A DNA stretch of 64,000 nt from a virus. The notes under the pieces are model-generated. The model was not told where the DNA came from. It saw only the letters and a program-made list of their open reading frames with translations, and made no database searches. The stretch is from the IMG/VR virus record IMGVR_UViG_3300029243_000160, positions 64,001 to 128,000 of that record; one strand, given 5' to 3'. This document shows, in pieces, positions 4,045 to 63,058 of this stretch. The position numbers and the translations under genes were made by a program. Positions within the stretch are counted from its first letter, which is position 1. Every line of letters begins with the position of its first letter.

Positions 4045-4099
4045 ATTATAGCATAGCAGTGTACATTTGTCAACTGTTAATCTGTATAATATCCGTTAT
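4045..4099 (-). promoter_or_regulatory. sigma-A-type promoter plus upstream ATAACGGATAT...ACAGA motif (drives RepL-like genes)
   Basis: Minus-strand read: ATAACGGATATTATACAGATTAA-cag-TTGACA-aatGTACACtgctatgc-TATAAT, with a 17-bp spacer. One of 8 copies of the same promoter class. Confidence 0.7.
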
Positions 4100-4267: not shown

Positions 4268-5056
4268 TATAGACTTCTATATCATAGCCGGACATTCCAG
4301 TCCTCTCCTATCAGTTTTATTGTCCGGTTGCTATACAGATTCCATAGACTTCTATTTCGCTGTCGAACATATCGCATTCCAATAGACATCGAACATTCGA
4401 CTTCTACTAGAAATCTATGATATAGACTTCTCAAACGAAGCTACGCTTCGTGCTTCGCCTTCCGGCTCAGCGACTGTTTGTCTGTGAGGCAGGTGTCCCT
4501 TCTATCTATGGTTTACAATGTCAAGTGAGGTTGCAGTCTTTGGGACAGGAATAGAAGTCGATGACACAGCACTCCCTCTCTCAAAGAGCAGGGGTCAAGG
4601 GCTACTCCCTTGTCGCTGAAAGCGAAATTGCTTTCTTATCTCACAGACAGCACCATAGACACAACTTTCAGTAAACTTGCACATTGCTGTTAATCTCATA
4701 GACTGCATCATAGACACCCTTAGACTTCGTGACACCGGAGAATGCTGGTTCATAGACTGTACCATAGAATACACGAAATAAATTAAGACAGCAGATAATA
4801 ATAATTACGAATGTCTATGAGTAATTATTATTATCTAAACTAGACTTCTAAATAGCATTCTATATAGACTTCTAACTAGACTATGTATTCTATGATTTAG
4901 ACTTCTATTAGACTTCTAATAGATAACTATATAGCTTTCTATTAGACTTCTATATCTTATTTTCTATATAGATTGCTATATATAAATATCTATATAGATT
5001 TCTATTAGCTTTCTATTATTTCACTTGCTATATAGCATTCTATATAGATTTCTATG
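4268..5056. repeat. iteron array / candidate replication origin
   Basis: Perfect TAGACTTCTA at 4270, 4345, 4841, 4865, 4898, 4909 and 4943. Many variants (TAGATTTCTAT, TAGCTTTCTAT, TAGCATTCTAT, TAGATTGCTAT, CATAGAC...) and one inverted copy at 4551-4563. AT-rich, with no credible ORF. Confidence 0.75.
4793..4836. repeat. perfect 16-bp inverted repeat (AGATAATAATAATTAC / GTAATTATTATTATCT, 12-bp spacer)
   Basis: Read directly. Pure A/T-rich arms inside the iteron region, so a candidate unwinding or cruciform element. Confidence 0.7.
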
Positions 5057-6481: not shown

Positions 6482-6713
6482 GTTGCAACTTGTGCGTATC
6501 TGCGAGATGTAAGTTACCCGACCTGCCCTCGTCGGTGAACTCCCCGAGTTGCAACTTGTGCGTATCTGCGAGATGTAAGTTAAATGACAGCTTTTGTTTT
6601 TTACCGTTGATAAGTTGCAACTTGTGCGTATCTGCGAGATGTAAGGAGAATACAAAAGACACGATACTGCCAGCAACACCGGTTGCAACTTGTGCGTATC
6701 TGCGAGATGTAAG
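6482..6713 (+). CRISPR. orphan CRISPR-like mini-array: 4 x 32-bp repeat, 3 spacers
   Basis: Identical GTTGCAACTTGTGCGTATCTGCGAGATGTAAG at 6482-6513, 6548-6579, 6614-6645 and 6682-6713. Unique spacers of 34, 34 and 36 bp. Internal hairpin GTATCT-GCG-AGATGT. No cas genes in the window, and strand is not resolved. Confidence 0.7.
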
Positions 6714-6769
6714 CTATAAGGAGTTAAAGCCTTTAACAAAACAAAATAACAAGAAAGCAGGAATATAAA

Positions 6770-9963: not shown

Positions 9964-10500
9964 ATGAACGGTAACTGCCACTTCGTTTATGGTGCTTCCG
10001 TAGCCACTGCCCTGTCCATGAATATGGATAAGCTATCCGCAATCGTTCCCACCCTTGCCGTTTCTCCTGAAAACATCACATTGTTTATCTTTGGTGGCTT
10101 GATAGGCGGTATTTTTCCTGACCTTGACAACCCTACCAGCTATGTCGGAAAGCTATCCTCTCCATTAAGCAAGCTGTTTGGTGTGTTGGGAACAGCATCT
10201 GGTAAAACAGGAGCAAATCACAGAGGCATCTTGCATGACCCTCTTGTCTATCTTGTAGGACTATTTCTCTGCTGCCAGCACTTCACTCCACTCATCGGTT
10301 TTTTTATCGGTTGCTTATCACATCTGTTTTTAGATATGTTTAATCCGGCAGGTGTGCCATTCTTATTCGGTGTGAAGCATTTGCACCTGATGAAAATACC
10401 GTCCGGCAGTCGAGAAAGCGTGATTTTTACTTGGTTGAACGTAGTGCTGGTGCTGGTAGTTGGATTCGTACTCCAACTAAATCTTTTTCCTTTAACATAA
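9964..10500 (+). CDS. YdjM/DUF457-like membrane-bound metal-dependent hydrolase
   Basis: Several TM helices with GGIFPDLDNPTSYVGK, HRGILHDP and LSHLFLDMFNPAGVPF, a pattern I associate with the YdjM family. Confidence 0.65.
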   Translation: MNGNCHFVYGASVATALSMNMDKLSAIVPTLAVSPENITLFIFGGLIGGIFPDLDNPTSYVGKLSSPLSKLFGVLGTASGKTGANHRGILHDPLVYLVGLFLCCQHFTPLIGFFIGCLSHLFLDMFNPAGVPFLFGVKHLHLMKIPSGSRESVIFTWLNVVLVLVVGFVLQLNLFPLT

Positions 10501-10554
10501 TAACGGATATTTAACAGAATAAACATTGACCTATATTGATATAAATGATATAAT
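10500..10554 (+). promoter_or_regulatory. ATAACGGATAT motif + promoter (TTGACC-17-TGaTATAAT)
   Basis: Motif 10500-10522, -35 at 10526-10531, extended -10 at 10546-10554. Confidence 0.7.
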
Positions 10555-10560
10555 AAAAAG

Positions 10561-10737
10561 CAGAGAATCCCTTTGTTGCAGGTAGCAACATAATTATGCG
10601 GTAGCACCTTATCTTTTTTCAAGGAAAATCCGTTTTTATGCTTTTACAACCTGCTTGTGATATAGCAGGAAATGAAAAAGGGAATAGAAACGAACGATTT
10701 TACAGGTATGGTGTAGCTCACTGTACCTGTTTTTTTA
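10561..10737 (+). ncRNA. leader RNA A (~175 nt) ending in an intrinsic terminator, upstream of the 10761-21421 operon
   Basis: Promoter-to-terminator unit. Shares the block ATGCGGTAGCACCTT...CAAGGRAA...TCCG and a CCTGCT/AGCAGG hairpin with leader B (21493-21725). Confidence 0.5.
10702..10737 (+). terminator. rho-independent terminator/attenuator
   Basis: ACAGGTATGGT...ACTGTACCTGT stem (~11 bp including G-U pairs) followed by TTTTTTT, 24 nt before the ATG at 10761. Confidence 0.7.
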
Positions 10738-10760
10738 TTTGCTGAGAAAGGAATTAAACT

Positions 10761-14613: not shown

Positions 14614-14636
14614 ATAACGGATATTTCGCAGAGTAA
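14614..14636 (+). promoter_or_regulatory. ATAACGGATATTTCGCAGAGTAA motif in 5' UTR position
   Basis: Same motif as the other 12 copies. Here it directly abuts the RBS (..CAGAGTAAATAGAAAGG, identical to the xis copy). Confidence 0.6.
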
Positions 14637-19936: not shown

Positions 19937-21421
19937 ATGGAAAACGAAAGCAAAATCATGTTGGACGAAAATGCCGGAATCATGATTGATGACGGAAAGA
20001 TAAATGCTGTTGCCTTTCTTTTTGATGCACAGTACAAGGAATTTGCCGAACGTACAAACTTACTGAAAGACGCTGAGGCTACCTTTGAAGAGCTTCTGGA
20101 AGACGGCGACACATTTCTTGATATGTACGTCAATTTTTCGCCGAACGGTGAAGTGTCTGCAACATTGAATATGCAGAGTGACACTTATGGCTACGAAAGC
20201 TATGCTGTACCGTTGGAAGACAACGAAAAACAGGCGTTAAAGAACGAACTTGACCGTATTGCCAGATACAATGAAATGACAATTGATGAATTGATGGAAG
20301 AAGCAATGGCTACGGTTCAAGTCAGAAATATGTTGGTAAATGAGGACGGCAATCTCTTTGCCACGATGGAAGTGAATCGTTCTCGTATGGAAGAGATGCT
20401 AAATGATGCCAACTCGCCCTTGCTGAAAGGAAAAGACATTCACGAGCTGGTTTATTTCAATGATGCAGCCTCTCCTATTTTGACAGCAGAAATAAATCGT
20501 GATGAATCCGTGCAGGCTTCTGCAATCATGAGGGACGGTTACGAGGAAATTGAAGTACCCTTGTCTCTTGATGATAATACAATTGCAGAAATCAAAGATG
20601 CTGTCAAAGAAAACGTGGAACAGAGCCTTGATGTTTCTGTCCAGCATTTTTTTGAAACTGCCGAGCCGAATCATAATTACTCGCAGGAAGAAGTTCATGC
20701 TCTTGCCGAAACGGTCGGTAAATTCGTGACAGCATATCAGGAGTATCAAGAGCCGGAAAAAGAATTTTCTCTGGAAAAGAATATTCAGCGTATCGAAGAG
20801 GGACTTACTTCTCCGGAAATTCTGCCTAGACTTACTGCGGAACTGGACAAAGCGATTGATGTTTCGCAACGGACAACCAGTGAAGGCATCTTCCTTCTTC
20901 CTGACAGAATCGTGGAACAGGCAGTAGAAGTTGCACAGCAGATGGAAATGTACACAAAACCGCTGGAATTTGAAAAAAGCGAGATTGTACAGTTTGACAG
21001 CGAAGTTATTATGGACACCGAGACTGCCGATGGAGAAACAAAGGCAACCATCAATCTGGCGTTGTACATGACAGACGATTTTATGGAACAGGCTCTGGAC
21101 AGAGCCGGAGCTTTTGAGCTTGGCAATCCATCATATCAGGCAGAGAATTTTGAAACACTGATGTATGATGCAGACGGTGCTTTTAAGACAGCAGTCAACG
21201 GATATATTGACATCAATCAGGATAAAGAAGTTTCCTTTACACTGTATACCAGCGATGATGTGGAACTTACTGTTCCACTTTCTGACACAGAGCAGCGTAT
21301 TGTTCTGGACGAGGCAGACAAGTATATTCAGAAAGAAAATGGTGTAACACTTGACCAGAATCTTGACGAAGCAATAAAAGAATCAAAAGAATTGTCAGAG
21401 ATTGATGAACCAGAGATTTGA
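19937..21421 (+). CDS. acidic protein (494 aa)
   Basis: ORF track; RBS AGAAAGGAAA; D/E-rich. Confidence 0.7.
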   Translation: MENESKIMLDENAGIMIDDGKINAVAFLFDAQYKEFAERTNLLKDAEATFEELLEDGDTFLDMYVNFSPNGEVSATLNMQSDTYGYESYAVPLEDNEKQALKNELDRIARYNEMTIDELMEEAMATVQVRNMLVNEDGNLFATMEVNRSRMEEMLNDANSPLLKGKDIHELVYFNDAASPILTAEINRDESVQASAIMRDGYEEIEVPLSLDDNTIAEIKDAVKENVEQSLDVSVQHFFETAEPNHNYSQEEVHALAETVGKFVTAYQEYQEPEKEFSLEKNIQRIEEGLTSPEILPRLTAELDKAIDVSQRTTSEGIFLLPDRIVEQAVEVAQQMEMYTKPLEFEKSEIVQFDSEVIMDTETADGETKATINLALYMTDDFMEQALDRAGAFELGNPSYQAENFETLMYDADGAFKTAVNGYIDINQDKEVSFTLYTSDDVELTVPLSDTEQRIVLDEADKYIQKENGVTLDQNLDEAIKESKELSEIDEPEI

Positions 21422-21442: not shown

Positions 21443-21486
21443 ATAACGGATATGTATTGACAGTAACGGATTGTTTGTGCTATAAT
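21443..21486 (+). promoter_or_regulatory. ATAACGGATAT motif overlapping a strong promoter (TTGACA-18-TATAAT)
   Basis: -35 at 21457-21462, -10 at 21481-21486, with the tgtgcTATAAT block shared with the minus-strand promoter class. Confidence 0.7.
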
Positions 21487-21492
21487 ATAAAG

Positions 21493-21725
21493 GAAGTATA
21501 TAGTAGCACTTCTATGCTGTCCAATCCGTGACGGCAGATAATGATACAAATGCGGTAGCACCTTCACAAGGGAAGGAAAGTCCGATTATATTATTTATTA
21601 GCTGTTACCTGCTGTTCTTTTCTTGTCACGCAACATTTGTGAATGGAAAGAGCAAAACATCAGCAGGCTTAATAAATATACAAAGGACGTTCTGAGAATC
21701 ATTTTCTGAGAGCGTCCTTTTTCTT
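21493..21725 (+). ncRNA. leader RNA B (~230 nt), homologous to leader A
   Basis: Contains ATGCGGTAGCACCTT, CAAGGGAAGGAAAGTCCG and a CCTGCTG...CAGCAGG hairpin, and ends in a strong terminator hairpin. Confidence 0.5.
21682..21725 (+). terminator. rho-independent terminator/attenuator
   Basis: AAAGGACGTTCTGAGAA...TTCTGAGAGCGTCCTTT long imperfect stem followed by TTTTCTT. Confidence 0.7.
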
Positions 21726-21735
21726 AACCTCAAAA

Positions 21736-21758
21736 ATAACGGATATTTTACAGAGTAA
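21736..21758 (+). promoter_or_regulatory. ATAACGGATATTTTACAGAGTAA motif in 5' UTR position
   Basis: Lies between terminator B and the RBS AAAAAGGAG of the 21777 gene. Confidence 0.6.
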
Positions 21759-21776: not shown

Positions 21777-22157
21777 ATGAAAAACACAGTTGACCTATTT
21801 CGCATCTTCCAGCACGAACAGAAACGTGTTGGCGATAGCATGACAGTTTACTACAACATTGAAGAAAATTCCCTGCAATACAAAAACACCAAAGGCACTC
21901 TCACAGTGATATTTCATGCTTCTGATGCAGGCGAAGATTTCTATTATCAGAAGTTCGGGGAGCTTGTTTCAGAAAATGGCAAAAAGCTCGGAATCCTTGT
22001 GCAGAAAACTTATCATAACGGACAAAATGCACATTTGTTTCAAAACCCGATGACTGGCGGCTTGAAAATGTTTGAGATTCCGCAGGAGTTCATTGATATT
22101 GCAAGAGCATATCAATTCGACCGTGAATCTATTGGCTTGAAAGGAGAAACTGCATGA
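21777..22157 (+). CDS. hypothetical protein (126 aa)
   Basis: ORF track; RBS AAAAAGGAG. Confidence 0.65.
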   Translation: MKNTVDLFRIFQHEQKRVGDSMTVYYNIEENSLQYKNTKGTLTVIFHASDAGEDFYYQKFGELVSENGKKLGILVQKTYHNGQNAHLFQNPMTGGLKMFEIPQEFIDIARAYQFDRESIGLKGETA

Positions 22158-24547
22158 AAGGTAAATTCTACGCTTCCGGCGATTTGAAACAGCTGGAAAG
22201 CACATTGAAAGAACACGAACCATACGCTGTCCTTGTGGTGTCTACCACAGGGATTGACAAAGAGAACGAGTTTGAAGGACACTTTCCTACTCGTGTTGTT
22301 ATGAAGCAGTTTGAGTTTGATGACGAAACCAAAAGCTATCAGAGTGGCTTCACATTTGATAAGCTGGTGCAAGCTCCGCAAGAGGCAATCCAAGAGGCGT
22401 TGAAGAATGAAAGTTCTTACGATGTTTTTGCAAACGGTGGAATCGACAAAGAGGCGTATCTCCGTGGTGAAAATGTGCTGCCTGTTGCGGAATTTCAGAA
22501 AGAGTTTCAGACCGCAATTTCTGCGGTTCAGGAATCCAATGCTACCCTTATCATCAACAATCAAACTCACGCATTTCATTTCATGGACAAAATCCAGTCG
22601 GCTGATACGCTTCGTGAAATCAGGGAACAGGGCAAGACACTTGACCAAGTGAATCTGACCAGAGCATATTTCCGAAAGCACGATGTACAGGGACAGGCAA
22701 CATTGGAAGCTTTGCGGAATTATCGCATGAGTTCTCCTAAGAGTTCATTTCTTGCAACTGCGGATAAAGCAACACTGAAAGATTTGAGTGGTATGACAAA
22801 AGATGCTTTCATGGAAGCTCACCCAGATATTTCAGAATCCTCATACGATGTGACGAAGAAAGATTTTGACAGAAAATCTGCAAAAATCATCGGTGGAGAC
22901 CAGCGGATTCAGGTAATCAGCAACTTTATTACAGAGTATGGCAGAGAAGAAAAGATTCTGGAAAACGAATACCTCACCAGTATGCGTGAAAGCGATGCTG
23001 CCAAGACACGTCAGTGGTCTGAACGTGGTAAGGAAAAGTACCGTGAAAGCAATGTTGATGAGAAGTTCCAGACACTTATTAACAAGCACGTTATCAATCC
23101 GGAAAAAATTCTTGCAGGCGACAGTCAGTTCCACAAATTGATTGATGCAATTGAACACGGCGAAAACAAGGGCATTATGATGATTCATACTGCTACTACC
23201 GGATTCGAGAGAAAGGGGAACAGAACTGACACTGGATTCCCGATTCAGTTTGCAACAGCGGTTTATAAGCGTGGCGAAGAAGGCAAAATTGATATGTCAC
23301 ATAAAGCTGCTACAACCATGCTGATTCAAGCTCCTGCAAGAAGCATGGCAAACGCCGAAGAAAATATTCGTACCGGAAAATACGATACTTTCGCAGAATC
23401 CGGTATCAATATAGACGATTACAAAGCTGGCAAAGATGTCCTCAGCCAGTCAGAAGCACAGGAACGGATTCATAAAGTGTTCCAGATGTTTCCACCAGAA
23501 GACTATACCATTGTTACGTTCAGCAAAGACTTTGCTCAGAGAAGTCTCCAGCATCTTGGCAACTTCTCTGTAATCAATGAGCCGTCCATTGATGCTACAC
23601 AAGCAATCAAAGAATATGCCTATCTTGCAAGCCACGATGAGGCATATCATGGCGATGTTGCTCTGTTTGACATGAACAAAATGCAGGCTTTTGGCTTGAA
23701 TGATGTGGCTGAGAGCCGTGGTGCTGATGCTCCGAAATCTGCTATTTCAAAATGCTTACTGATGGGACAGCTCCTTGATGAAGCTGAACAACAGCAAATT
23801 GAACTCTTCCACCCACAGGATAAAGAGCAGACCTCGAAAGAATCCGATATTCCTCAGCAGAAAGAACCTGCTACGGAAAATGTGAAAGAATCTCCGGCAC
23901 AGGAATCTTCTCCTGTTCAGAAAGCACCAAAGGAACAGCCTGCTTCCGTTACTCCGCAAGAGGTTGCCGATGCAGAAGCAGCAATTCGGAAAGAATTTGA
24001 AAATGCTGCCAGTGAAAAAGCACAGCAGGAAACTGGAAAGGTTCGCAGATACCGCCGTGGGGAACAGCAAGAAGGAAATCGCAGAACAATTACTCGTGAG
24101 CCGTCAGAAAGTCGCCAGAAGCCTTCTCCTGCTCCACAGCAAACTATGCAAGCAGAAAACCTCGCCAAGACAAACGAAGCCTTAAACGGCGTTGTAGCGT
24201 CTCTGTCTGAGGCGTTGAGCAAGCAGACACAAAGCATGATTCAGATGCAATCAGAACTGATGCGGACAAATCAGCAGTTAATGGAAACCAATCAGCGTTT
24301 GGTATCGGCATTGGAGAAACAAAATGAAATCCTGCAATCTCTCACCGGAGAGCGTTCCGTTTCCAGAAAGCAGAATCCTGTGGAGAAAATTGAAAGCTTG
24401 AAGGAAGAGATTTCGGAAATGTCTGAAAATTTTCCTCGTTCGGCAGCAGCTTACATGACTTCTGCGAACAAAGCTCTGACAACAGCACAGCATGAATACG
24501 AGAAAAACGAACGAAATCTTGAAGTCGCTGACCGTTCGGCAAGCTAA
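22154..24547 (+). CDS. large protein with two degenerate DnaQ-like exonuclease-fold segments and coiled-coil C-terminus
   Basis: AVLVVSTTGIDKE and MMIHTATTGFERK resemble exonuclease motif I (xxDxETTG) but lack the acidic residues. NNQTHAFHFMDKI resembles motif III. The C-terminal third is Q/E-rich. Confidence 0.7.
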   Translation: MKGKFYASGDLKQLESTLKEHEPYAVLVVSTTGIDKENEFEGHFPTRVVMKQFEFDDETKSYQSGFTFDKLVQAPQEAIQEALKNESSYDVFANGGIDKEAYLRGENVLPVAEFQKEFQTAISAVQESNATLIINNQTHAFHFMDKIQSADTLREIREQGKTLDQVNLTRAYFRKHDVQGQATLEALRNYRMSSPKSSFLATADKATLKDLSGMTKDAFMEAHPDISESSYDVTKKDFDRKSAKIIGGDQRIQVISNFITEYGREEKILENEYLTSMRESDAAKTRQWSERGKEKYRESNVDEKFQTLINKHVINPEKILAGDSQFHKLIDAIEHGENKGIMMIHTATTGFERKGNRTDTGFPIQFATAVYKRGEEGKIDMSHKAATTMLIQAPARSMANAEENIRTGKYDTFAESGINIDDYKAGKDVLSQSEAQERIHKVFQMFPPEDYTIVTFSKDFAQRSLQHLGNFSVINEPSIDATQAIKEYAYLASHDEAYHGDVALFDMNKMQAFGLNDVAESRGADAPKSAISKCLLMGQLLDEAEQQQIELFHPQDKEQTSKESDIPQQKEPATENVKESPAQESSPVQKAPKEQPASVTPQEVADAEAAIRKEFENAASEKAQQETGKVRRYRRGEQQEGNRRTITREPSESRQKPSPAPQQTMQAENLAKTNEALNGVVASLSEALSKQTQSMIQMQSELMRTNQQLMETNQRLVSALEKQNEILQSLTGERSVSRKQNPVEKIESLKEEISEMSENFPRSAAAYMTSANKALTTAQHEYEKNERNLEVADRSAS

Positions 24548-25671: not shown

Positions 25672-26777
25672 GATACGCAATTGACAGCAAAGGAACAGTG
25701 CTTCCTCTCCCACCAAACCAAAATATGATACGTTTCATTCCGATTGAAGTTCGTGCAAAGGAACTTGTGAGATTCACTTCTGAATTTGCAGAACTCTTGA
25801 ACGGTGCAGGTATCAACACGCAAAATGCTAAGTATTGCTACATGATACAACCTCTCTACGCTTCGGAACGACTGGTTTATTTCACAAGAACAGAATTGTC
25901 TTCCAGTTCACAGGCAGTCCGCATGGCAAATGAGCTGGATAAGCACCCAGAATTGCTGAATCAGCCGGATATGCTCGAACTGCTCCAGAGCATCTTTCAG
26001 GACACTCGTGGCACTCCACGCTGGTATTTGATTTCTGTGGGATATGTTGAACTGGAACGCAATCTGTATGACTGCAAACGTATCAATTTGACATACCACC
26101 AACCAGTTTTCTTTCACAGATTTCAAAAAGTGATACAGAAAGAACAAATCACAAAGGAAGAACTGGAACTTGCTGTTCCGTGCGAGAAATATCGCTTTTT
26201 TTCAAATGATATAAACTTTTCCGACCGAGAAATGCTGATAGATATTGCTCTTGAAAGAGATATAGTTGGCGGTAAAGAATCTGTTTTTGATATGAAAGTA
26301 TATCAAGCCGTGAAGCAGTATCGGCAGATGAAGTTCTCTCAAAAGGACGTTTTCAGCAACACTGCCGCAAAATGCTTAAAGGACTTGAACACACACACCT
26401 CATGGAAAAAGAAAGATGTCTATATCGCTTATGACACAGCCAAAAAGCTGATAAAGAGCGTTTATAAAAATGCTTATGGCATCTGCTATAAAGATACCAG
26501 AATCACTGCTTACCTTACACCGGAGCGTTTTCTGACAATGTATGTTGGTGGTACACGAGACAGACCGTTGTACATCATTGACGGAAATTTTTTAACAATA
26601 GAACAGTTAAAAGATTATCTAATGAGCTTACAAGAGCTGCCTGTTGTTCCGTGGTTTGCGGATAAGGTGCAACCTTATATCGAAGTGAGGAAGCCTCAGA
26701 AGGCTTCCAAAGCCCAGAGAAACGTACTTCAATGGAACAAAAAGCGAAAAAAGAAGAAACCCAGAAAGGAAAAATAA
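25668..26777 (+). CDS. hypothetical protein (369 aa), basic C-terminal tail
   Basis: ATGA overlap with the upstream stop. The tail is KKRKKKKPRKEK. Confidence 0.7.
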   Translation: MRYAIDSKGTVLPLPPNQNMIRFIPIEVRAKELVRFTSEFAELLNGAGINTQNAKYCYMIQPLYASERLVYFTRTELSSSSQAVRMANELDKHPELLNQPDMLELLQSIFQDTRGTPRWYLISVGYVELERNLYDCKRINLTYHQPVFFHRFQKVIQKEQITKEELELAVPCEKYRFFSNDINFSDREMLIDIALERDIVGGKESVFDMKVYQAVKQYRQMKFSQKDVFSNTAAKCLKDLNTHTSWKKKDVYIAYDTAKKLIKSVYKNAYGICYKDTRITAYLTPERFLTMYVGGTRDRPLYIIDGNFLTIEQLKDYLMSLQELPVVPWFADKVQPYIEVRKPQKASKAQRNVLQWNKKRKKKKPRKEK

Positions 26778-26779
26778 CT

Positions 26780-29620
26780 ATGGCGAATCAAGTGAGACCT
26801 GCTTCCGAAGAGGACAAGAACAAACTGAAAGAAGCGTTCACAAAGCTATGGAACGCACTTCGCTCTATCTTCAATAAGAGAAGTGTTGTGGAGCGAATGG
26901 AAAAAATGCAACAGGAAATGGACTATATGCTGGCTCAGAACGGCATGACCGAAGATGCAGTGAAGGAACTGACAGAAACATTCAATACAATGTCTGGTCG
27001 CCTGCATACGCTTACTCCGGAAAATGTCGATGCGTTTGTAGACGAGTTGCAGCAGTCTATCAGAATTGTTGCTGAAAGGAATGAAGAATCTTATACTTCT
27101 CCGGAATTTTCAGATGATTTTATCAAAAAAATCGCATATTATGTCAAGGCTGACCCCAGCGAAGCTTTTGCTGAGGACTTGATGAAGAACGCACAGGTTG
27201 TCAAGATTGATGGCGACAACGAAAATGCCATCTTATCATACAAAGGACACTGCATGATGGCGAGACTTGATGAAAGACAAAAGCAAATCGTTCTGATAAT
27301 GAGTGCTATCCCACCGGAACAATCTGTTTTCACTGAAAACGGAGAACTTGCACAAGGATATTCTTTTGCGGAAATTCCAGAAGATATGCAGGGAAATGCA
27401 AAGCTTGTTTTGCTAAATGCACTTTGCGAACAAAGCGATAAAACTTTTGTGTACGACAAAGAAAAGGAACAACGCCGGATTCTTGAAGAAGCAAAGAAAA
27501 AAGTTTCTCCGCAGGCAAGATTCCTTGGTGAACGGTACGAAACTGCTGTACAGGAATCAGACAATCTGGAGAGTATTTATAAGCGTGATGATGCAACTTT
27601 CCGGATTCGTGACAAAGCAACTGGCGAAATGCTCCGTATCAAGTCTGACAAAGACAAAATGCAGGTATTCCTTTCTCAGGACACCCAGAGTTTCGATGTG
27701 CCAAAAGGCAGTAAAGAAATTCTGCTTGGACAGTGGGAACAGAAAGAAAAAGGAATCCTTGCAGGCAAATTCCGTCTTTCTCTTGGCAGTGACAACGTAA
27801 CATCTATGCTCCGAAGTGACGCTGTTCAGAAATGGTTTGAAATGAACGGTATCTCTCTGGAAGCACAAAACCAGTCCTTCCACCACAGAACAGACAGCAA
27901 GGCAACATGGAGCAAAGTAGACGAAGCGAAAATGTCCAACGTAATTGCTCTTCAAGAATCGTGTGCAAGGTCGATTGCTAAAAATCACCCTGATGAAAAG
28001 ATTATCGCTTCGGTTTACGAAACAACTCCGAAGAAGAAAAACCACAACAAAACATACACATTCCTGAATGTCGTGAAAGATGAAGGGAAAGGTGAAGAAA
28101 ACCCGAAGCTTTCTATCTCCTTCAATTCAGACGGCACACCGCTGACAATCAATTACAACAATCAGTTCGCATACAATATCGCAGCTCGTACTACTTCTGA
28201 GAACTATCATACGATTCTGTGGAACGACCCTGCATTCCGTGAATTGTACAATATTGCTGTTGACGCTTTACAGGAACAGGGCTTGGACAGAGGCATCTTG
28301 AAGTTCGGCGATGTTCCTTACGAGAAACAGGAAACTGCAAAGCCAGAATCTTCTTACACAGCAATCTACACTGCTGTTCCGCTTGAAGAACGTGGCTTGA
28401 CCAAACAGGATATGGATTCTTGGATTCCATTACATGAAAAAAATGATGCAAAAATCATCAACCAGCTTGCTCTGAGTGCAATTCGGAACGGAAGCATTTC
28501 CATGAAGGAAATCAAGCAAGAAACCAAAGGACACACTATCAAGACAAAGCAGGCATTGGACACTTTAGTGAAATTGGGAGTGGTTTCTGAAAGTTTGAAA
28601 CATGAAAGTCTGATGTCCGAAGAAGACTATGCAAAGGCAATCAGTGACCTTGCCAGAAATCCGCAGGCAAGAGCAGAATTTGCATCGCTTTCCAATTCTG
28701 ATGCTGAACAGAACAATTTCACAACCTATCTGACTGATTCCTATGAAGATGCTTGTCAGTATGACTGGAATCCGTATCTTGTTCTGAATAAAACAGAATA
28801 CGGTCTGGCTGATGTTGTCATGTCTGCCATCGAAACCAGACTGAACAACGGACACGACAGCATCGACTTGGCAAAGCTCCAGAGATTGACCGGAAAATCA
28901 TCACAAGAGGCAAGCAATATTATGGTTGAGCTGGAACGCATGGGTATTGTGGAAGGCGAAAACGATAAAAAGATTCTCGTTTCCAGTGATGATATTGCTC
29001 ATCTGAAAGAAGTTGCTCTCCAGCATGAAATGTCTCACGATATGGGTACACTGGAGTATGCAGAAGCAATCACTGAACTGGTTATGGAAACTATTGAAAA
29101 AGGCAGCATTTCCGTTGATGACATAATCATAAATCCTTCGATGGCTGAAAAGAATGTTAATGCAAGCAGTGCAATTCACACGCTGGAAGAACTCGGCGTA
29201 ATTTCCGGCGATGATGCTCATACCTGCCTTGTTACACAGGAAGAATACGCTCAGAAGTTCAAGGAAGGCAATTCTGATGCCTTCACAAATCTGCTTGCTA
29301 TCAGCTACGCAGAGTACACACGAGAAGAAAAGGCAGACCGTGACGAATCTATCCCTGAAAAAACAGACAGCAAGGAAGAAATTTCTTCTCCGACTGAGCC
29401 TGAACATGATGAAATTCCGGAAATGCCACCGTTCGATGAACACGACCCCTATGAAGATTATCCGGAGCAGGAAGATGCTGCGTTCGACCCGAACTATCCG
29501 TCAGATGAACTGCCAGAAGACCCTTATAGTGACGTAGAGGACAACTTCCAATTTGAAAATATGCCTGAACCGCCGGAAGAACCAGATATGAATAACGACC
29601 TTGACATGAGCTTAGACTGA
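26780..29620 (+). CDS. large protein with three FtsK-gamma-like wHTH repeats and acidic P/E/D tail
   Basis: ATG 26780 with AGAAAGGAAAA RBS. Repeats end in ALDTLVKLGVVSE, IMVELERMGIVEGE and AIHTLEELGVISGD. Confidence 0.75.
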   Translation: MANQVRPASEEDKNKLKEAFTKLWNALRSIFNKRSVVERMEKMQQEMDYMLAQNGMTEDAVKELTETFNTMSGRLHTLTPENVDAFVDELQQSIRIVAERNEESYTSPEFSDDFIKKIAYYVKADPSEAFAEDLMKNAQVVKIDGDNENAILSYKGHCMMARLDERQKQIVLIMSAIPPEQSVFTENGELAQGYSFAEIPEDMQGNAKLVLLNALCEQSDKTFVYDKEKEQRRILEEAKKKVSPQARFLGERYETAVQESDNLESIYKRDDATFRIRDKATGEMLRIKSDKDKMQVFLSQDTQSFDVPKGSKEILLGQWEQKEKGILAGKFRLSLGSDNVTSMLRSDAVQKWFEMNGISLEAQNQSFHHRTDSKATWSKVDEAKMSNVIALQESCARSIAKNHPDEKIIASVYETTPKKKNHNKTYTFLNVVKDEGKGEENPKLSISFNSDGTPLTINYNNQFAYNIAARTTSENYHTILWNDPAFRELYNIAVDALQEQGLDRGILKFGDVPYEKQETAKPESSYTAIYTAVPLEERGLTKQDMDSWIPLHEKNDAKIINQLALSAIRNGSISMKEIKQETKGHTIKTKQALDTLVKLGVVSESLKHESLMSEEDYAKAISDLARNPQARAEFASLSNSDAEQNNFTTYLTDSYEDACQYDWNPYLVLNKTEYGLADVVMSAIETRLNNGHDSIDLAKLQRLTGKSSQEASNIMVELERMGIVEGENDKKILVSSDDIAHLKEVALQHEMSHDMGTLEYAEAITELVMETIEKGSISVDDIIINPSMAEKNVNASSAIHTLEELGVISGDDAHTCLVTQEEYAQKFKEGNSDAFTNLLAISYAEYTREEKADRDESIPEKTDSKEEISSPTEPEHDEIPEMPPFDEHDPYEDYPEQEDAAFDPNYPSDELPEDPYSDVEDNFQFENMPEPPEEPDMNNDLDMSLD

Positions 29621-34408: not shown

Positions 34409-34470
34409 TTACTCTGTATTATATCCGTTATTTTCATTTACAATATATCAATTTCCCGAAGCACTGTCAA
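34409..34470 (-). promoter_or_regulatory. xis/int promoter (TTGACA-17-TATATT) with ATAACGGATAT motif downstream of the TSS
   Basis: -35 at 34465-34470, -10 at 34442-34447, motif at 34409-34431 abutting the RBS. Confidence 0.65.
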
Positions 34471-36238: not shown

Positions 36239-36670
36239 TCATTCGCCACTTTTGATTTCTGCTCGTATCTGCATCAAAATGAAGCCCAGTCGATTCGCCC
36301 CAGAACCGTTCACTGTTCCCCAAATCCTATCGCCCCATGTGTTGCCTTCTTCCAAATACGCATCACCTGTGGCAAGCAATTTGTCTGCAAGTTCTGTGTT
36401 TTGCGTGAACTTTGCTCTGACGATTTCTTCCATGATTCTGACTTTGACAGCTTCCCAATCCTTCCGCAAATTTACTTTCCTACCAAGCTTCTTTGCTTCG
36501 GTTGGATTCAGTTTCGTGAACTGAATTTTTTCAGAATCGCTCGTGCATTTCTGTGCCTGAAAAGCTGCTTCGTTGTTGGTGTAAGTCAGTTGCTTATATG
36601 TTACCGGACATTCGTAGAAATTACTCAAAAAGAAAAAATCTCCACGAAATTGTTTGATTGCTTGTTCCAT
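36239..36670 (-). CDS. NADAR (YbiA/DUF1768) family ADP-ribosyl-hydrolase-like protein
   Basis: FRGDFFFLSNFYECPV, NNEAAFQAQK, W..VK..IM and GANRLGFILMQIRAEI match the NADAR pattern I know. RBS TGAGGTGA. Confidence 0.8.
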   Translation of the reverse strand: MEQAIKQFRGDFFFLSNFYECPVTYKQLTYTNNEAAFQAQKCTSDSEKIQFTKLNPTEAKKLGRKVNLRKDWEAVKVRIMEEIVRAKFTQNTELADKLLATGDAYLEEGNTWGDRIWGTVNGSGANRLGFILMQIRAEIKSGE

Positions 36671-36690: not shown

Positions 36691-37137
36691 TTACAAGTAT
36701 TTCTTATATATTTTTTCACAAGCGTTTGGATAAGATGTTTCATGCAACGGATTATATAACTTCATCATCAGCTCTGCCGGAACTTTTTGGCTTATGGTTT
36801 TAGAAGGAATATTATACTTCCATTGCAACATAACATAAACGTGTGCAACCCACTCCAGCAGGATATTGTCATATTCTGTATTATCAGCCTTCGGCTTGCA
36901 TCTTGTAAAGTCAATAGAGTGCAGCAATTGTTTATAGCCCTTGTTTAACGCACTCCAATTGCCTTTATCCATTTTCTTTCGTATTTCTGAATGTTGCATA
37001 TACTCATCAATCATCGAACACAAACTGTACTGTTCGATTTCATTAAGCTTCAAAAATAGCAGTGTGTGAACATCTTCAACATCTTCCAGATACGAGGAAT
37101 CATACGCTTTATTATCTGTCATCAATTTCAAACTCAT
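36691..37137 (-). CDS. helical protein, DUF3791-like (tentative)
   Basis: Start trimmed to ATG 37137 (or 37122). Position immediately downstream of a DUF3990-like gene matches the common DUF3990/DUF3791 pairing. The family call is from memory and weak. Confidence 0.5.
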   Translation of the reverse strand: MSLKLMTDNKAYDSSYLEDVEDVHTLLFLKLNEIEQYSLCSMIDEYMQHSEIRKKMDKGNWSALNKGYKQLLHSIDFTRCKPKADNTEYDNILLEWVAHVYVMLQWKYNIPSKTISQKVPAELMMKLYNPLHETSYPNACEKIYKKYL

Positions 37138-37858
37138 TCCTTTCGTTAGCACGTTCTTCCTGTAAATAGCACCCATATTCCTTGTTGTATTCATATTGAG
37201 TGCTGATTACATCTTTCACAGTCAAACCAGCTGGTTTGAACCCATCAATCTGAATGGCGTACTCTCTGTTGTGCAAGAATTTTCCGACTTCTCTTCTCGC
37301 CTTTGCGTCAGCTTCACCATAATGAGAATCTTTGTTCATTGAGACATTTTCATAGTCTTCAAAACAAATCCGGTCAAATGCTTTTTCACTTTTTATAAAC
37401 ACCTGTTGCCCAAGATTGCCATTACGGAACATTCTATCAACTTCGTCAACAGACAACTGATTTCGCAAAAAAGACTTCACTACATTCATGTAGCTGTCGT
37501 CTGCACGATACCCAATTATTACATCGGCTTTTGAAGTGTCAATCTTATACATTTCCACAAGTTTGTCTGCAACTGCCTGTGTAAATTCGTCTGATGCACC
37601 TCGATGATTCGTTACCTCTGCAATCCATGCGAGTGTTCCGTGTTCATCAAGATTCAGGACGTTCAGTCCATCAAGGTCTATCGAATATTGATTACACACC
37701 GCAGATTTATCAGAGCCGTTTACCCAAGCCCATTCTCTTGCTTTTTCAATATCCTCTGTTGTGTAAAATCCGCTTCCGTAGTCGTTATCCTCTTTTCCAA
37801 CTCCGTACAGTGGTTTCTTTAAGATAACATCACTTCCGTGATATAAAATCTTTCTCAT
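37112..37858 (-). CDS. DUF3990-like protein with PARP/ART-like H-Y signature
   Basis: MRKILYHGSDV...DYGSGFYTTEDIEKA. HGS plus GxGFY mirrors the PARP-type LWHGS...GKGIYFA motifs. RBS AGAAAGGA. Confidence 0.7.
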   Translation of the reverse strand: MRKILYHGSDVILKKPLYGVGKEDNDYGSGFYTTEDIEKAREWAWVNGSDKSAVCNQYSIDLDGLNVLNLDEHGTLAWIAEVTNHRGASDEFTQAVADKLVEMYKIDTSKADVIIGYRADDSYMNVVKSFLRNQLSVDEVDRMFRNGNLGQQVFIKSEKAFDRICFEDYENVSMNKDSHYGEADAKARREVGKFLHNREYAIQIDGFKPAGLTVKDVISTQYEYNKEYGCYLQEERANERNEFEIDDR

Positions 37859-45675: not shown

Positions 45676-45776
45676 AAAGCAAGTCCTTTCTCAGGTGTCG
45701 GCGGCATTGATACCACTGATTTGTATATTATTACATTGCATAATTCAGCTCTTTTTTGAGCTATCTTACATGAATT

Positions 45777-45842
45777 ATTATAGCACAATAGTGTACAAAA
45801 GTCAAGCAATAACTGTTGTTTACTCTGTAAATTATCCGTTAT
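45777..45842 (-). promoter_or_regulatory. full cassette: ATAACGGATAATTTACAGAGTAA motif + TTGACTtttGTACACtattgtgcTATAAT
   Basis: -10 at 45777-45782, -35 at 45800-45805, motif at 45820-45842. Confidence 0.7.
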
Positions 45843-45870
45843 GTTTTTCAAACACATTTGTGCAAGCATA

Positions 45871-45900
45871 CAAAAAAGCCACTCTCTTGCGAAAGTGACT
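45871..45900 (-). terminator. rho-independent terminator
   Basis: Minus-strand AGTCACT-TTCGCAAGAG-AGTGGCT followed by TTTTTTG and GTATGCTTGCACAAA. Confidence 0.55.
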
Positions 45901-49882: not shown

Positions 49883-49936
49883 ATTATAACACATTGCAAT
49901 ATTACATTGCAATTTACTCTATCTATTATCCGTTAT
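49883..49936 (-). promoter_or_regulatory. ATAACGGATAATAGATAGAGTAA motif + promoter (TTGCAA-18-TATAAT)
   Basis: -10 at 49883-49888, motif at 49914-49936. The leader before the RBS AAGGAGAG is very short. Confidence 0.55.
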
Positions 49937-50270: not shown

Positions 50271-50306
50271 TTGATTTACTCTCCTTATCTTTGAATCACT
50301 ATACTT

Positions 50307-50372
50307 AGTATAGCACAATAGTGTACAAAAGTCAAGCACAAATCAAATTTTACTCTGTAAATTATTCGTTAT
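50307..50372 (-). promoter_or_regulatory. full cassette: ATAACGAATAATTTACAGAGTAA + TTGACTtttGTACACtattgtgcTATACT
   Basis: -10 at 50307-50312, -35 at 50330-50335, motif at 50350-50372. Confidence 0.7.
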
Positions 50373-50400
50373 CAAAACAAATGATTTTTGTGCAAACATA

Positions 50401-50428
50401 CAAAAAGAGCAGGAACTTGCCCTGCTCT
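50401..50428 (-). terminator. rho-independent terminator
   Basis: Minus-strand AGAGCAGG-GCAAGTT-CCTGCTCT followed by TTTTTG and GTATGTTTGCACAAA. Confidence 0.7.
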
Positions 50429-52409: not shown

Positions 52410-52448
52410 ATGCTGTGCCACCTTTCCTTTCAAGAATATTATAATATC

Positions 52449-52514
52449 ATTATAGCATAATAGTGTACAAATGTCAAGGTATATTAAGGTGTTACTCTGT
52501 AGATTATTCGTTAT
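52449..52514 (-). promoter_or_regulatory. full cassette: ATAACGAATAATCTACAGAGTAA + TTGACAtttGTACACtattatgcTATAAT
   Basis: -10 at 52449-52454, -35 at 52472-52477, motif at 52492-52514. Confidence 0.7.
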
Positions 52515-52543
52515 GTTTTTCGTAATTATTTGTGCAAGCATAC

Positions 52544-52569
52544 AAAAAGAGCAGGTTATCTGCCTGCTC
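52544..52569 (-). terminator. rho-independent terminator
   Basis: Minus-strand GAGCAGG-CAGATAA-CCTGCTC followed by TTTTTG and GTATGCTTGCACAAA. Confidence 0.7.
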
Positions 52570-52570
52570 C

Positions 52571-53098
52571 TTACAATTCCTGTTTCAAAGAGATGCCGAG
52601 CTTGTGAAACCGCATTTTGATTTCCTGCACACACGCTATGCCGATGCCTGTACAGTTCAAAAGTTCTTTTTCACTGTATTGTTTCAGAATCCCGATGGTA
52701 TCAATATCGTTGGATTTTAATGCTGTCGATGTCCGGAAAGAAAATCCAGCTTTCAAAACCGATGTATTTAGCAGCGGATTGGTTTCTGTCGGATTTCTTC
52801 TGCATCGGACTGAAAAGTATTCATCTTCCATAACACCGCCAAAATCCCGAACTACTTGTCGGATTCGCTCTTTTGTTACGCCGTACTCGTCAGCCAATCG
52901 TTCCAACGTATAGAAGTTGATATATCTTTTTTGAATGATTTCAGCATTTCTCTCATCGGTTCTGTAGAAGGCAGATTCTATCACTTCAACAAGCACATTA
53001 TGTTTTTCCTCGTCCAAGTCAATTCCGATTCGTTCCAGCATATCCTTCTGGAACGCTTTTCTACACAGCAGAGTGTTAATCTGCTCTTTACCTGTCAT
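52571..53098 (-). CDS. fusion of sigma-70 region-4-like HTH and RNA polymerase alpha-CTD-like domain
   Basis: AEIIQKRYINFYTLERLADEYGVTKERIRQVV matches the sigma region 4.2 pattern. FSFRTSTALKSNDIDTIGILKQYSEKELLNCTGIGIACVQEIKMRFHKLGISL aligns by eye with E. coli alpha-CTD [53 protein letters not shown]. Confidence 0.75.
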   Translation of the reverse strand: MTGKEQINTLLCRKAFQKDMLERIGIDLDEEKHNVLVEVIESAFYRTDERNAEIIQKRYINFYTLERLADEYGVTKERIRQVVRDFGGVMEDEYFSVRCRRNPTETNPLLNTSVLKAGFSFRTSTALKSNDIDTIGILKQYSEKELLNCTGIGIACVQEIKMRFHKLGISLKQEL

Positions 53099-53145
53099 GT
53101 CAATTACCTCATTTCTCTTTGCTTTTGCGTATAAGGTTATATTTA

Positions 53146-53174
53146 ATTATAGCACAGTAGTGTACATTTGTCAA
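53146..53174 (-). promoter_or_regulatory. cassette promoter TTGACAaatGTACACtactgtgcTATAAT
   Basis: 17-bp spacer. Drives the sigma4/alpha-CTD gene. Confidence 0.7.
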
Positions 53175-56484: not shown

Positions 56485-57384
56485 TCAGCATACAGTCAGC
56501 AGGATTTTTGCAATTGCCAGAACCGCCAGATGTGCAGGATAAAAATATCTGCAAGTGACAATACAGGCTTTACTTTTCAGAATCTTTGTCAGCCATTTCG
56601 GAAGAATAAAGCACTTATGCTTTTCACTGCACTGTGCAAAGAAAAACAGAATCAGCAACAAAAATGTTGCCAGATAAACTGTAATATTACTTCCCATTGA
56701 CAAGATGAAAATTCCCATCGCAACAATCTGCCACAGCCACTTGCAATGCTTTCTGTTTCTTGCAAAATTGAACAGACCAACGAGCAGGATTCCTCTCCAG
56801 CTGTAATCAACTTTGAAATAATATGCCAGTGCAAAAATCACACCAAAAACAATTCCTGTTCCGCAATTCACAGCAAGCTTTCTTACTTTTCCAGTTCCAA
56901 AAAACTTGCTCCAGCATTTCTGATTACTCTGCAAATTATCCGTTATTGTCAGCATTAAAAAGCAAAGGAAGAATGTGAAAATCGTATTCTGCCCTTTGAA
57001 AATGTCCATGCTGATTTCGGTCGGGTTTTGCAAAGTTAATGCGAGGTCAAAAGGAATTTCAGATACCAACGCAAGCACTATCAAGCGTATCAGATGTCGC
57101 ATTGGATTTTGTGTGTGATAGAAGCTTTCTACAAACAGAAAAGCAAAGATAGGAAATGCAAATCTTCCGACAATGAGACACCACAGTTCTGCATTGTCGC
57201 CGATTACTCCGGTACTATACAATACCTTTCCCAAGTGGTCTGTTACCATTGTCAGAACCGCAATGATTCTGAGCAGGTAATACCATTCTGTTGAGATGCG
57301 TTCTGGACGAGTGGCAGTAATCGCTTTCTGCTCTGTCAAACGATGCTGCTTTTTCTCCATACGGATTGAACTTCTTTTTCCCAT
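56485..57384 (-). CDS. traX: TraX-family polytopic membrane protein
   Basis: WYYLLRIIAVLTMVTDHLGKVLY and multiple TM helices. Start uncertain (ATG 57384 or GTG 57396). Confidence 0.65.
   Translation of the reverse strand: MGKRSSIRMEKKQHRLTEQKAITATRPERISTEWYYLLRIIAVLTMVTDHLGKVLYSTGVIGDNAELWCLIVGRFAFPIFAFLFVESFYHTQNPMRHLIRLIVLALVSEIPFDLALTLQNPTEISMDIFKGQNTIFTFFLCFLMLTITDNLQSNQKCWSKFFGTGKVRKLAVNCGTGIVFGVIFALAYYFKVDYSWRGILLVGLFNFARNRKHCKWLWQIVAMGIFILSMGSNITVYLATFLLLILFFFAQCSEKHKCFILPKWLTKILKSKACIVTCRYFYPAHLAVLAIAKILLTVC
56924..56946 (-). promoter_or_regulatory. intragenic copy of the ATAACGGATAATTTGCAGAGTAA motif inside traX
   Basis: 22/23 match to the 45820-45842 copy. In frame it encodes ITDNLQS. 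Confidence 0.5.
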
Positions 57385-57418
57385 ATGATGATACACTCCT
57401 TTTTATAGTACATTATTT

Positions 57419-58088: not shown

Positions 58089-58622
58089 TTATCGGTCAAA
58101 TGAACGCTTACAAGGTTCGGTTTTTTCTGCGGATTCTTCTGCAAAGTCACGGACTTTTTCTCGGAGTTCTCTCTCATGGCTGTTGTCACAAACCAGAATT
58201 GTGATGTTCTCATCGTTGAACACTTCGATGATAATGGAAAGCACAACTTTCCACGGCATTTTGTCAAGTCCTGCTCCGATTTTCGGCATAGCCAACATCT
58301 TGATTCTCTGCTCTTTCGCCTGCTCTCTCAAATCGAATAAAGCGTTTCTCATGGTTTCCTCAGTCGGCTTGTGGAAGTAGTTTCGTTTCGTTACCAGATT
58401 GAACACTCTGCCGTCCTGCACACAGAAGCCCTTTGTCCAAGAGCCGTCCCATTCTGCAACCACGTTGCCGTATCTCTTTTTCAAATTTTCCTTTATATTG
58501 AAGTGCTTATTGAACTGAACCGCAATGCCTGCTCCCATAGCAAAATCAGCACTGATGCACTGCACCAGATAGTAGCTGCTTGGCACACAAAACAAGTCAC
58601 ATTCTTCATATTTGTAAATCAT
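58089..58622 (-). CDS. TARG1/OARD1-like macrodomain (ADP-ribosyl hydrolase family)
   Basis: ATG 58622 (RBS GAAAGGAGAA). VQCISADFAMGAGIAVQFNKHF...FNLVTKRNYFHKPTEETMRNAL...LAMPKIGAGLDKMPWKVVLSIIIEVF aligns by eye with human TARG1 ([21 protein letters not shown]...ITKKRASHKPTYENL...LSMPRIGCGLDRLQWENV). Confidence 0.8.
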   Translation of the reverse strand: MIYKYEECDLFCVPSSYYLVQCISADFAMGAGIAVQFNKHFNIKENLKKRYGNVVAEWDGSWTKGFCVQDGRVFNLVTKRNYFHKPTEETMRNALFDLREQAKEQRIKMLAMPKIGAGLDKMPWKVVLSIIIEVFNDENITILVCDNSHERELREKVRDFAEESAEKTEPCKRSFDR

Positions 58623-58640
58623 GTTTTCTCCTTTCAAGAA

Positions 58641-62901: not shown

Positions 62902-62951
62902 AATTCAAAACTCCTTATTTTTTGTTTGGTTTCTTGTACCTTACATATATT

Positions 62952-63017
62952 ATTATAGCACAGTAGTGTACAAATGTCAAGTGCTTTTAGATGTTTACTC
63001 TGTAAAATATCCGTTAT
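62952..63017 (-). promoter_or_regulatory. full cassette: ATAACGGATATTTTACAGAGTAA + TTGACAtttGTACACtactgtgcTATAAT
   Basis: -10 at 62952-62957, -35 at 62975-62980, motif at 62995-63017. Confidence 0.7.
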
Positions 63018-63058
63018 GTAAGTATCAGAATATTTGTACACCATGCCGAATAAAACAA

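Follow-up and report, generated by a model that had tools for sequence, protein, structure and literature searches.

A mobile-element protein joining a sigma-70 region 4 to an alpha-CTD-like domain, a candidate two-module reader of promoter DNA

On the - strand of a 64,000-nt stretch of IMG/VR record IMGVR_UViG_3300029243_000160 (positions 64,001 to 128,000 of the record; in the following, the window), a 175-residue protein is encoded which combines a region 4 of sigma-70 type with a domain related to the C-terminal domain of the alpha subunit (alpha-CTD) of RNA polymerase (RNAP). The window is a mobile element of a gut Firmicute, and the two modules are the textbook upstream promoter readers of bacterial RNAP, which touch each other on the DNA. 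The sequence and its relatives suggest that the protein is a small, promoter-DNA-binding transcription regulator of the element, acting as a two-module reader, and we put the probability of this reading at about one half.

Domain structure of the protein

The gene is an open reading frame (ORF) with an ATG start, and all sequence strings quoted in an earlier, sequence-only reading of this DNA are present in its translation; TLERLADEYGVTKERIRQV corresponds to residues 64-82. The two domains proposed there were recovered above the Pfam cut-offs, Sigma70_r4 (PF04545) at residues 48-84 (31.6 bits, cut-off 24.1) and RNA_pol_A_CTD (PF03118) at residues 106-162 (34.8 bits, cut-off 23.8). The top NCBIfam matches were to the last ~70 positions of RpoA models and to region 4 of the RpoH, RpoD and RpoS models, every match lying far under the respective whole-protein cut-off (24-37 bits against 228-523 for the RpoA models). 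By phmmer against PDB sequences, RpoA C-terminal domains were matched at 3e-5 and RpoH region 4 at 3.5e-4. A profile of 15 family members, run against PDB, matched alpha-CTDs at 4e-22, that of B. subtilis best, and residues 535-608 of E. coli RpoD, i.e., the whole region 4 including 4.1, at 1e-13.

An AlphaFold2 (AF2) model built on the 15-member alignment reached a mean predicted local distance difference test (pLDDT) value of 89.7. Its C-terminal domain was aligned by Foldseek with solved alpha-CTDs over 64-66 residues, with target-normalised template-modelling scores of 0.92-0.94 and a root-mean-square deviation (rmsd) of 0.8-0.9 A. The alpha-CTD was thus recovered by both profile and structure. 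The structural check that the sequence-only reading had suggested for both folds did not extend to the sigma half: a single-sequence AF2 model of residues 1-100 was of poor quality, at a pLDDT of 69, and gave no meaningful match in Foldseek, and region 4 is therefore assigned by sequence and profile evidence. A linker of ~12 residues joins the complete region 4 to the complete alpha-CTD fold, and the N-terminal 45 residues are conserved in an orthologue of the same length (P0002, 49% identity).

No Pfam match to Sigma70_r2 or Sigma70_r3 was obtained in the protein at E<=10, just 45 residues standing ahead of region 4, and no Pfam match to RNA_pol_A_bac or RNA_pol_L, which would have indicated the N-terminal domain of the alpha subunit (alpha-NTD). 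Lacking both sigma region 2 and an alpha-NTD, the protein does not qualify as a sigma factor or as a subunit of RNAP, and it can neither enter the enzyme in that role nor melt DNA. The RinA/ArpU-type families TIGR01636 and TIGR01637 were not among the best 25 of 27 NCBIfam matches at E<=10, and a match to Pfam KORA was weak and sub-threshold (E 0.02).

Residues at the predicted DNA interface

Residues were mapped by our own reading of the PDB and RpoH alignments, with E. coli numbering. The recognition helix of the helix-turn-helix (HTH), K76-E77-R78-I79-R80-Q81, corresponds to R584-E585-R586-I587-R588-Q589 of sigma-70, the readers of the -35 hexamer, while the basic activator-contact patch that follows the helix in sigma-70 (K593, K597, R599, R603) is not retained. 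In the C-terminal domain, R122 takes the place of the minor-groove arginine R265, and G153 that of G296. Among the remaining members of the 265 determinant (R265, N268, C269, G296, K298, S299), C269 is replaced by A126, and the other three are likewise substituted, as detailed below. The acidic 261 determinant (D259, E261), which contacts sigma region 4, is gone, its equivalents being K116 and G118. Because residues of the 265 determinant and the acidic 261 determinant are lost, the C-terminal module is, by this mapping, a diverged relative of the alpha-CTD, not a faithful copy or mimic of that of RpoA.

A family of relatives in phages and mobile elements

An exhaustive HMMER search of 1.84 billion representatives yielded 385 relatives at E<=1e-3, the best 150 of which were parsed with local hidden Markov models of both halves. 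Region 4 was followed by one to three alpha-CTDs in 47 of these 150, and the reverse order, alpha-CTDs followed by region 4, was found in 27. The remainder were mostly arrays of 2 to 12 alpha-CTD copies, with P0004 and others carrying 8-12 repeats. A profile search of a larger collection added >50 more proteins with PF03118 and PF04545, nearly all of them metagenomic and unnamed. The survey of the architecture that the sequence-only reading had called for thus showed it to recur in well over 100 divergent metagenomic proteins, and its members have so far come almost exclusively from contigs of phages or mobile elements or from unclassified metagenomic contigs. Two metagenomic proteins of 462 residues among those added (P0220, P0223) were full-length primary-type sigma factors (regions 1.2-4) which begin with an alpha-CTD-like domain and, after it, a lysine-rich linker.

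The genomic surroundings of the relatives were inspected in four phage contexts. In a temperate siphophage the gene was located between a replication module (ERF, replisome organiser, DnaC-like protein, SSB) and the portal gene; in a second context it stood between early genes and a tRNA array which was followed by the terminase; in a third it came after the dUTPase gene; and the fourth was a contig of small ORFs without family matches. In phages, the relatives thus lie between the replication and packaging modules, a place that late-gene activators usually take. Three phage loci with relatives (L133, L147, L148) were searched for repeats, and no bipartite motif comparable to that described below for the window was seen. 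In L147, an A-rich, UP-like stretch fused to CTTGAC was observed at 1767-1795, 10727-10755 and 20096-20124, one copy lying directly after the stop codon of the relative.

The architecture itself is not new to databases, since precomputed Pfam annotations and RefSeq names already show it. WP_346998477.1 and WP_303766873.1, members of the same 90% cluster as the window protein, are named 'DNA-directed RNA polymerase subunit alpha C-terminal domain-containing protein', BFVD lists phage proteins, uncharacterised as well, under no other name than 'RNA polymerase, alpha subunit, C-terminal', and the PHROG matches were to generic 'sigma factor' and 'transcriptional regulator' families. A literature search on the architecture returned nothing relevant. 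We found no regulator in the literature that combines sigma region 4 with an alpha-CTD, and we rate the protein as a new variant among the small mobile-element regulators of the sigma-region-4 type.

A proposed two-module reading of promoter DNA

According to the reading we prefer, the protein would bind promoter-region DNA directly. The HTH of region 4, with its K/R-E-R-x-R-Q intact, would sit in the major groove of a TTGACA-like hexamer, and the tethered alpha-CTD-like domain, with the R265-equivalent arginine and the hairpin glycine intact, in the adjacent AT-rich minor groove. In this way the protein may occupy or supplement the contacts of host sigma-A region 4 and alpha-CTD at the consensus promoters of the element, and possibly also at host promoters; the outcome would be repression by occlusion, or activation, as the late-activator slot of the phage relatives suggests.

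We infer DNA reading by both modules because the DNA-contact residues are conserved, because alpha-CTD copies multiply in the family as a DNA-binding repeat would, and because the recognition helix is of the primary-sigma type, which has one universal target, the -35 hexamer, a sequence present on the element in many perfect copies. Many consensus TTGACA promoters, scoring 10-12/12, are present on the element. In 128 divergent two-domain relatives the recognition helix reads T-[RK]-E-R-[IV]-R-Q, at 77-97% per position and at >90% for the equivalents of K76, E77, R78, R80 and Q81, and the 265-determinant equivalents are kept as R in 87%, N in 77%, G in 93%, K in 48% and S in 51%. The place of the phage relatives between replication and packaging genes, the PHROG matches and the orthologue of equal length and gene order also speak for this reading. 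Since the relatives carry one to 12 tandem alpha-CTDs, placed on either side of region 4, a DNA-binding module fits better than a one-to-one subunit mimic.

Several points weigh against this reading. An isolated sigma region 4 binds -35 DNA weakly, and past the recognition helix the sequence of the window protein deviates from the family and sigma-70 consensus EAKALRKLR. In the alpha-CTD, three of the six residues of the DNA determinant are lost, with T125 in place of N268, A155 in place of K298 and C156 in place of S299. The conservation figures for the relatives are partly circular and inflated, as the relatives were found by similarity to the recognition helix. A protein working at the upstream promoter interface is nevertheless compatible with all of the evidence.

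The gene, its expression signals and the 23-bp motif

The sequence-only reading had given the gene its own promoter and terminator, and both were found, together with a ribosome-binding site (RBS; Table 1). The GC-rich terminator hairpin begins 1 nt 3' of the stop codon. From these predicted signals, the gene is expressed autonomously.

Table 1. Features of the gene, the encoded protein and the 23-bp motif in the window.
Feature	Position	Strand	Basis or remark
Gene of the sigma region 4/alpha-CTD protein	52571..53098	-	ORF list
N-terminal 45 residues, three predicted helices, no family match	52964..53098	-	AF2 secondary structure, alignment
Sigma-70 region 4 domain, residues 46-95 (region 4.1 helix, HTH, recognition helix)	52814..52963	-	PF04545, RpoH alignment, RpoD profile match
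Alpha-CTD-like (helix-hairpin-helix)2 domain, residues 106-172	52583..52783	-	PF03118, PDB alignments, Foldseek, profile
Predicted own promoter, TTGACA-17-TATAAT with TG extension, score 12/12	53146..53174	-	sequence
Predicted RBS GAGGT, 6 nt ahead of ATG	53105..53109	-	sequence
Predicted intrinsic terminator, GAGCAGG-loop-CCTGCTC and T-run (hairpin 52549-52569)	52541..52569	-	sequence
Motif copy ATAACGRATAWWWWWCAGARTAA, closest to the gene; candidate regulatory site 14 nt ahead of the -35 of the helicase gene that follows	52492..52514	-	position conserved in diverged element L001
Motif copy, 14 nt upstream of -35	45820..45842	-	
Motif copy, 14 nt upstream of -35 (YodL-like gene)	50350..50372	-	
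Motif copy, 14 nt upstream of -35	62995..63017	-	
Motif copy, 1 nt upstream of -35 (DUF262/NsnA-like gene)	49914..49936	-	
Motif copy, 3 nt upstream of -35 (RepL-like operon)	4077..4099	-	
Motif copy, 3 nt upstream of -35	10500..10522	+	
Motif copy past terminator, end 19 nt before ATG, no sigma-70 promoter between	14614..14636	+	
Motif copy past terminator, end 18 nt before ATG; consensus promoter ~250 nt upstream (21457-21486)	21736..21758	+	
Motif copy between sigma-70 promoter and RBS of Tn916-Xis-like gene (~+4 to +26)	34409..34431	-	same arrangement in Acetatifactor L084
Motif copy within TraX-like ORF (56485-57396)	56924..56946	-	conserved in TraX of L001, 3156-3178

The conserved motif that had been reported near promoters in at least 13 copies is real, and its count is 11: the motif, ATAACG[G/A]ATA-W5-CAGA[G/A]TAA, was found 11 times at <=3 mismatches where 0 were expected, and no copies were found at 4-6 mismatches. 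It is bipartite, asymmetric (non-palindromic) and sharp-edged with a variable, AT-rich centre, and all 11 copies are oriented as the local genes. Four copies lie 14 nt upstream of a consensus -35 and three 1-3 nt upstream of a -35; one is placed between promoter and RBS of xis, two in a promoterless gap after a terminator, and one within the TraX ORF. From within TraX, this last copy may act as promoter or operator on the HTH_17 gene and the three genes of secreted proteins further downstream.

The motif might define a regulon of 11 transcription units for which the protein is the dedicated regulator, akin to KorA/KorB of RK2; one module would recognise block 1 (ATAACGRATA), with block 2 (CAGARTAA) or the AT-rich centre left to the alpha-CTD-like domain. 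Such a role would suit the sharply bounded, co-oriented and unexpectedly frequent motif, and the motif co-occurs with the orthologue in the diverged element L001, where it stands directly downstream of the orthologous gene, in TraX and before an RBS. The protein is also the sole sigma-related protein in the window, and the motif is not present upstream of its own promoter. The co-occurrence, however, comes from two elements with shared synteny. The conserved blocks hold no TTGACA-like hexamer, just a variable TTTACA-like stretch, yet the recognition helix is of the primary-sigma type. Moreover, six other DNA-binding proteins are encoded in the window (RepL-like, HTH_36, Tn916-Xis, HTH_17, NikA-like and H-NS_N-like). 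Five strong promoters are free of the motif, that of the gene itself and four others, and its absence from the gene's own promoter is therefore nothing special. There is also no single geometry, the motif lying 14 nt upstream of -35, at ~+4 to +26, or at sites without an adjacent promoter. The motif, proposed earlier as an obvious candidate target, is thus not tied to the protein, and from the sequences compared here we consider a dedicated motif regulator rather improbable.

Outside the window, a motif scan of the GTDB genomes gave almost solely single chance matches, with no relative encoded in any of the 8-kb loci; the only real related element recovered was that of Acetatifactor (L084), with two motif copies. 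A scan of the metagenomes with the orthologue alignment returned just the same element and distant matches to sigma region 4.

In five copies which precede a start codon (14614, 21736 and 34409 in the window, 5461-5483 in L084 and 9786-9808 in L001), the motif stops 17-19 nt short of the start codon and the RBS lies 4-5 nt past the motif. The hexamer [C/T]AGA[G/A/T]T within the motif keeps A2, A4 and T6 of TATAAT. These pre-RBS copies may themselves be activator-dependent promoters without a -35, or sites of a roadblock. In an informal comparison by eye with the consensus promoters of sigma-H, sigma-54, extracytoplasmic-function (ECF) and sporulation sigma factors, the motif misfitted in spacing or bases.

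Copies of this kind bear on a further possibility, that the protein acts on RNAP and not on DNA alone. Region 4 would dock on the beta-flap tip, replacing or standing beside region 4 of host sigma-A, as a trans-acting 'region 4', by sigma appropriation or as one of the two parts of a split sigma factor. With the alpha-CTD supplying contacts to upstream DNA, RNAP would be redirected to promoters without a -35, possibly the pre-RBS motif sites. This would account for pre-RBS motifs with a weak -10-like hexamer, those at 14614 and 21736 having no intervening sigma-70 promoter, and it agrees with a profile match that spans all of region 4, 4.1 included, with the late-activator slot of the phage relatives, and with the precedents of T4 AsiA/MotA, T4 gp33/gp55 and B. 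subtilis SigO-RsoA. On the other hand, were the hexamer a -10, block 1 of the motif would fall at -27 to -18, which is not the place of region 4. Up to 12 alpha-CTDs in the relatives misfit a stoichiometric RNAP partner, and no Sigma70_r2 partner was found among the ~70 window ORFs scanned with Pfam. We therefore regard an action on RNAP as unlikely, and binding to promoter DNA as the better account of the protein.

Some arrangements around the motif were recorded in addition. An intergenic module of ~135 nt is repeated at 45762-45897, 50292-50427 and 52434-52569 (also 62937-63019), with the layout terminator, GTATGCTTGCACAAA, 23-bp motif, 14 nt, TTGACW-TTTGTACACTAnnnTGC-TATAAT. The promoter spacer TGTACAC is conserved in seven promoters, which suggests cassette shuffling or a second operator. 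The stretch 21457-21758 resembles an attenuation or antitermination leader: downstream of its perfect consensus promoter (21457-21486) come an ORF or leader of 55 codons, then a terminator, and finally the motif with the RBS of a 10-kb operon.

The element and its cargo

The window has a GC content of 41.6% and encodes a Tn916-type integrase with Xis, a RepL-like protein adjoining iteron-like repeats, NikA-like, CHC2 primase and DHH/RecJ-like proteins, a polyvalent LPD protein of 1192 residues, TraX and YodL. The exact protein occurred in 470 index blocks of the metagenome collection, on contigs of up to 1.4 Mb, and the element is therefore integrated in chromosomes; variants of the same 90% cluster were present on >1000 contigs, the longest of 1.5 Mb. 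A tblastn search with the protein against phage and plasmid collections gave no match, and a peptide scan of the GTDB species representative genomes no relative. The related element in the Acetatifactor metagenome-assembled genome points to Lachnospiraceae as hosts. The diverged element L001, which carries the orthologue, shares its gene order with the window: TraX, HTH_17, three secreted proteins, the sigma region 4/alpha-CTD gene and the DUF5710 helicase.

The gene belongs to a cargo arm whose genes are singly promoted and terminated, several of them defence-like, among them a GajB-like DUF5710 helicase-nuclease, an NsnA-like DUF262 protein, a DEDDh exonuclease, PDC-M42A/B, Macro and NADAR. 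ADP-ribose-related cargo was observed at 36691-37858, 36239-36670 and 58089-58637, comprising a DUF3990 protein with its partner (PADLOC candidate PDC-M42A/B), a NADAR domain and a Macro domain protein. In such surroundings the protein could also be a decoy, its free alpha-CTD or region 4 soaking up factors that target RNAP, such as ADP-ribosyltransferases acting on R265, Spx-like regulators or anti-sigma-4 proteins, and protecting the transcription of host or element in a conflict. The defence-like and ADP-ribose-related neighbours (Macro, NADAR, DUF3990/PDC-M42A-B, the NsnA-like protein and the GajB-like helicase) and the conserved R265 equivalent would agree with this. However, the neighbours have promoters and terminators of their own, so that the linkage is weak, the 261 determinant is lost, and the conserved residues are those that contact DNA. 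In addition, the tyrosine required for Spx binding to the B. subtilis alpha-CTD is a serine here by our own alignment reading. A decoy is thus very unlikely in our view, and direct reading of promoter DNA remains the preferred function.

Further observations concern the replication region and the main operon. Four 35-nt direct repeats with a period of 66-68 nt at 6482-6716 and a cluster of short TAGACTTCTA-type repeats at 4841-5054 are both located between the RepL-like gene (3496-3984) and the + strand genes; they resemble a replication origin of the iteron type, and the element carries a Tn916-type integrase besides. Two proteins of 797 and 962 residues (22154-24547 and 26732-29620) in the main + strand operon had no Pfam match. 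An element-encoded RNAP using the motif as its promoter was considered and rejected, as these two proteins have neither a Pfam match nor a D-x-D-x-D catalytic motif.

Implications

A free, separately expressed fusion of the two promoter readers points to a general way in which host transcription may be tuned or hijacked. The fusions are conserved on a mobile element that is very common in gut bacteria, and they recur in many phages at the boundary of early and late genes. It is a tentative extension, which we hold to be a good deal less probable than the function proposed for the window protein, that proteins of this type are widespread mobile-element factors which handle upstream promoter recognition (-35 and UP element) in trans. 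This might take either of two forms. By occupying the DNA sites, the proteins would silence transcription that depends on a -35, and so form a DNA-directed counterpart to T4 AsiA; docked on the beta flap, each as a detachable 'region 4 with its own alpha-CTD', they would send host RNAP to element promoters without a -35. Either form, if true, would be a new means of re-programming RNAP in which no sigma factor takes part. The window protein is small, looks soluble and has been modelled with confidence, and the motif with its 11 copies defines a regulon on the element.

Comparison with known systems

With the alpha-CTD of RpoA (PF03118), the window protein shares the fold and the equivalents of R265 and G296, and Firmicute alpha-CTDs are its best sequence matches. 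It differs from RpoA in the substitutions T, A and C at positions 268, 298 and 299, in the missing acidic 261 determinant and in the fusion behind region 4; it also has no alpha-NTD and therefore cannot assemble into RNAP. The 4.1 helix, the 4.2 HTH and the -35-reading residues are shared with region 4 of sigma-70 factors (RpoD, RpoH), whereas regions 1.2, 2 and 3 are absent and with them -10 recognition, melting and the main core-binding surface.

Among regulators of mobile elements, the late activators RinA, ArpU and LtrC and Orf7 of Tn916 are likewise small, encoded by phages or mobile elements and equipped with an HTH of the sigma-region-4 type. RinA, ArpU and LtrC also share with the phage relatives of the window protein the slot between replication and packaging genes; no activator of the RinA/ArpU/LtrC/Orf7 type is known to carry an alpha-CTD. 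T4 AsiA/MotA and gp67 of S. aureus phage G1 are also devices of mobile elements that rewire the interface of -35, region 4 and alpha-CTD, but they are unrelated in sequence and fold and bind sigma region 4 instead of imitating it. KorA/KorB of the IncP plasmid RK2 offer a parallel to the 23-bp motif, with a short operator repeated about a dozen times at varying distances from promoters; the Kor operators are palindromic, whereas the motif of the window is asymmetric and directional.

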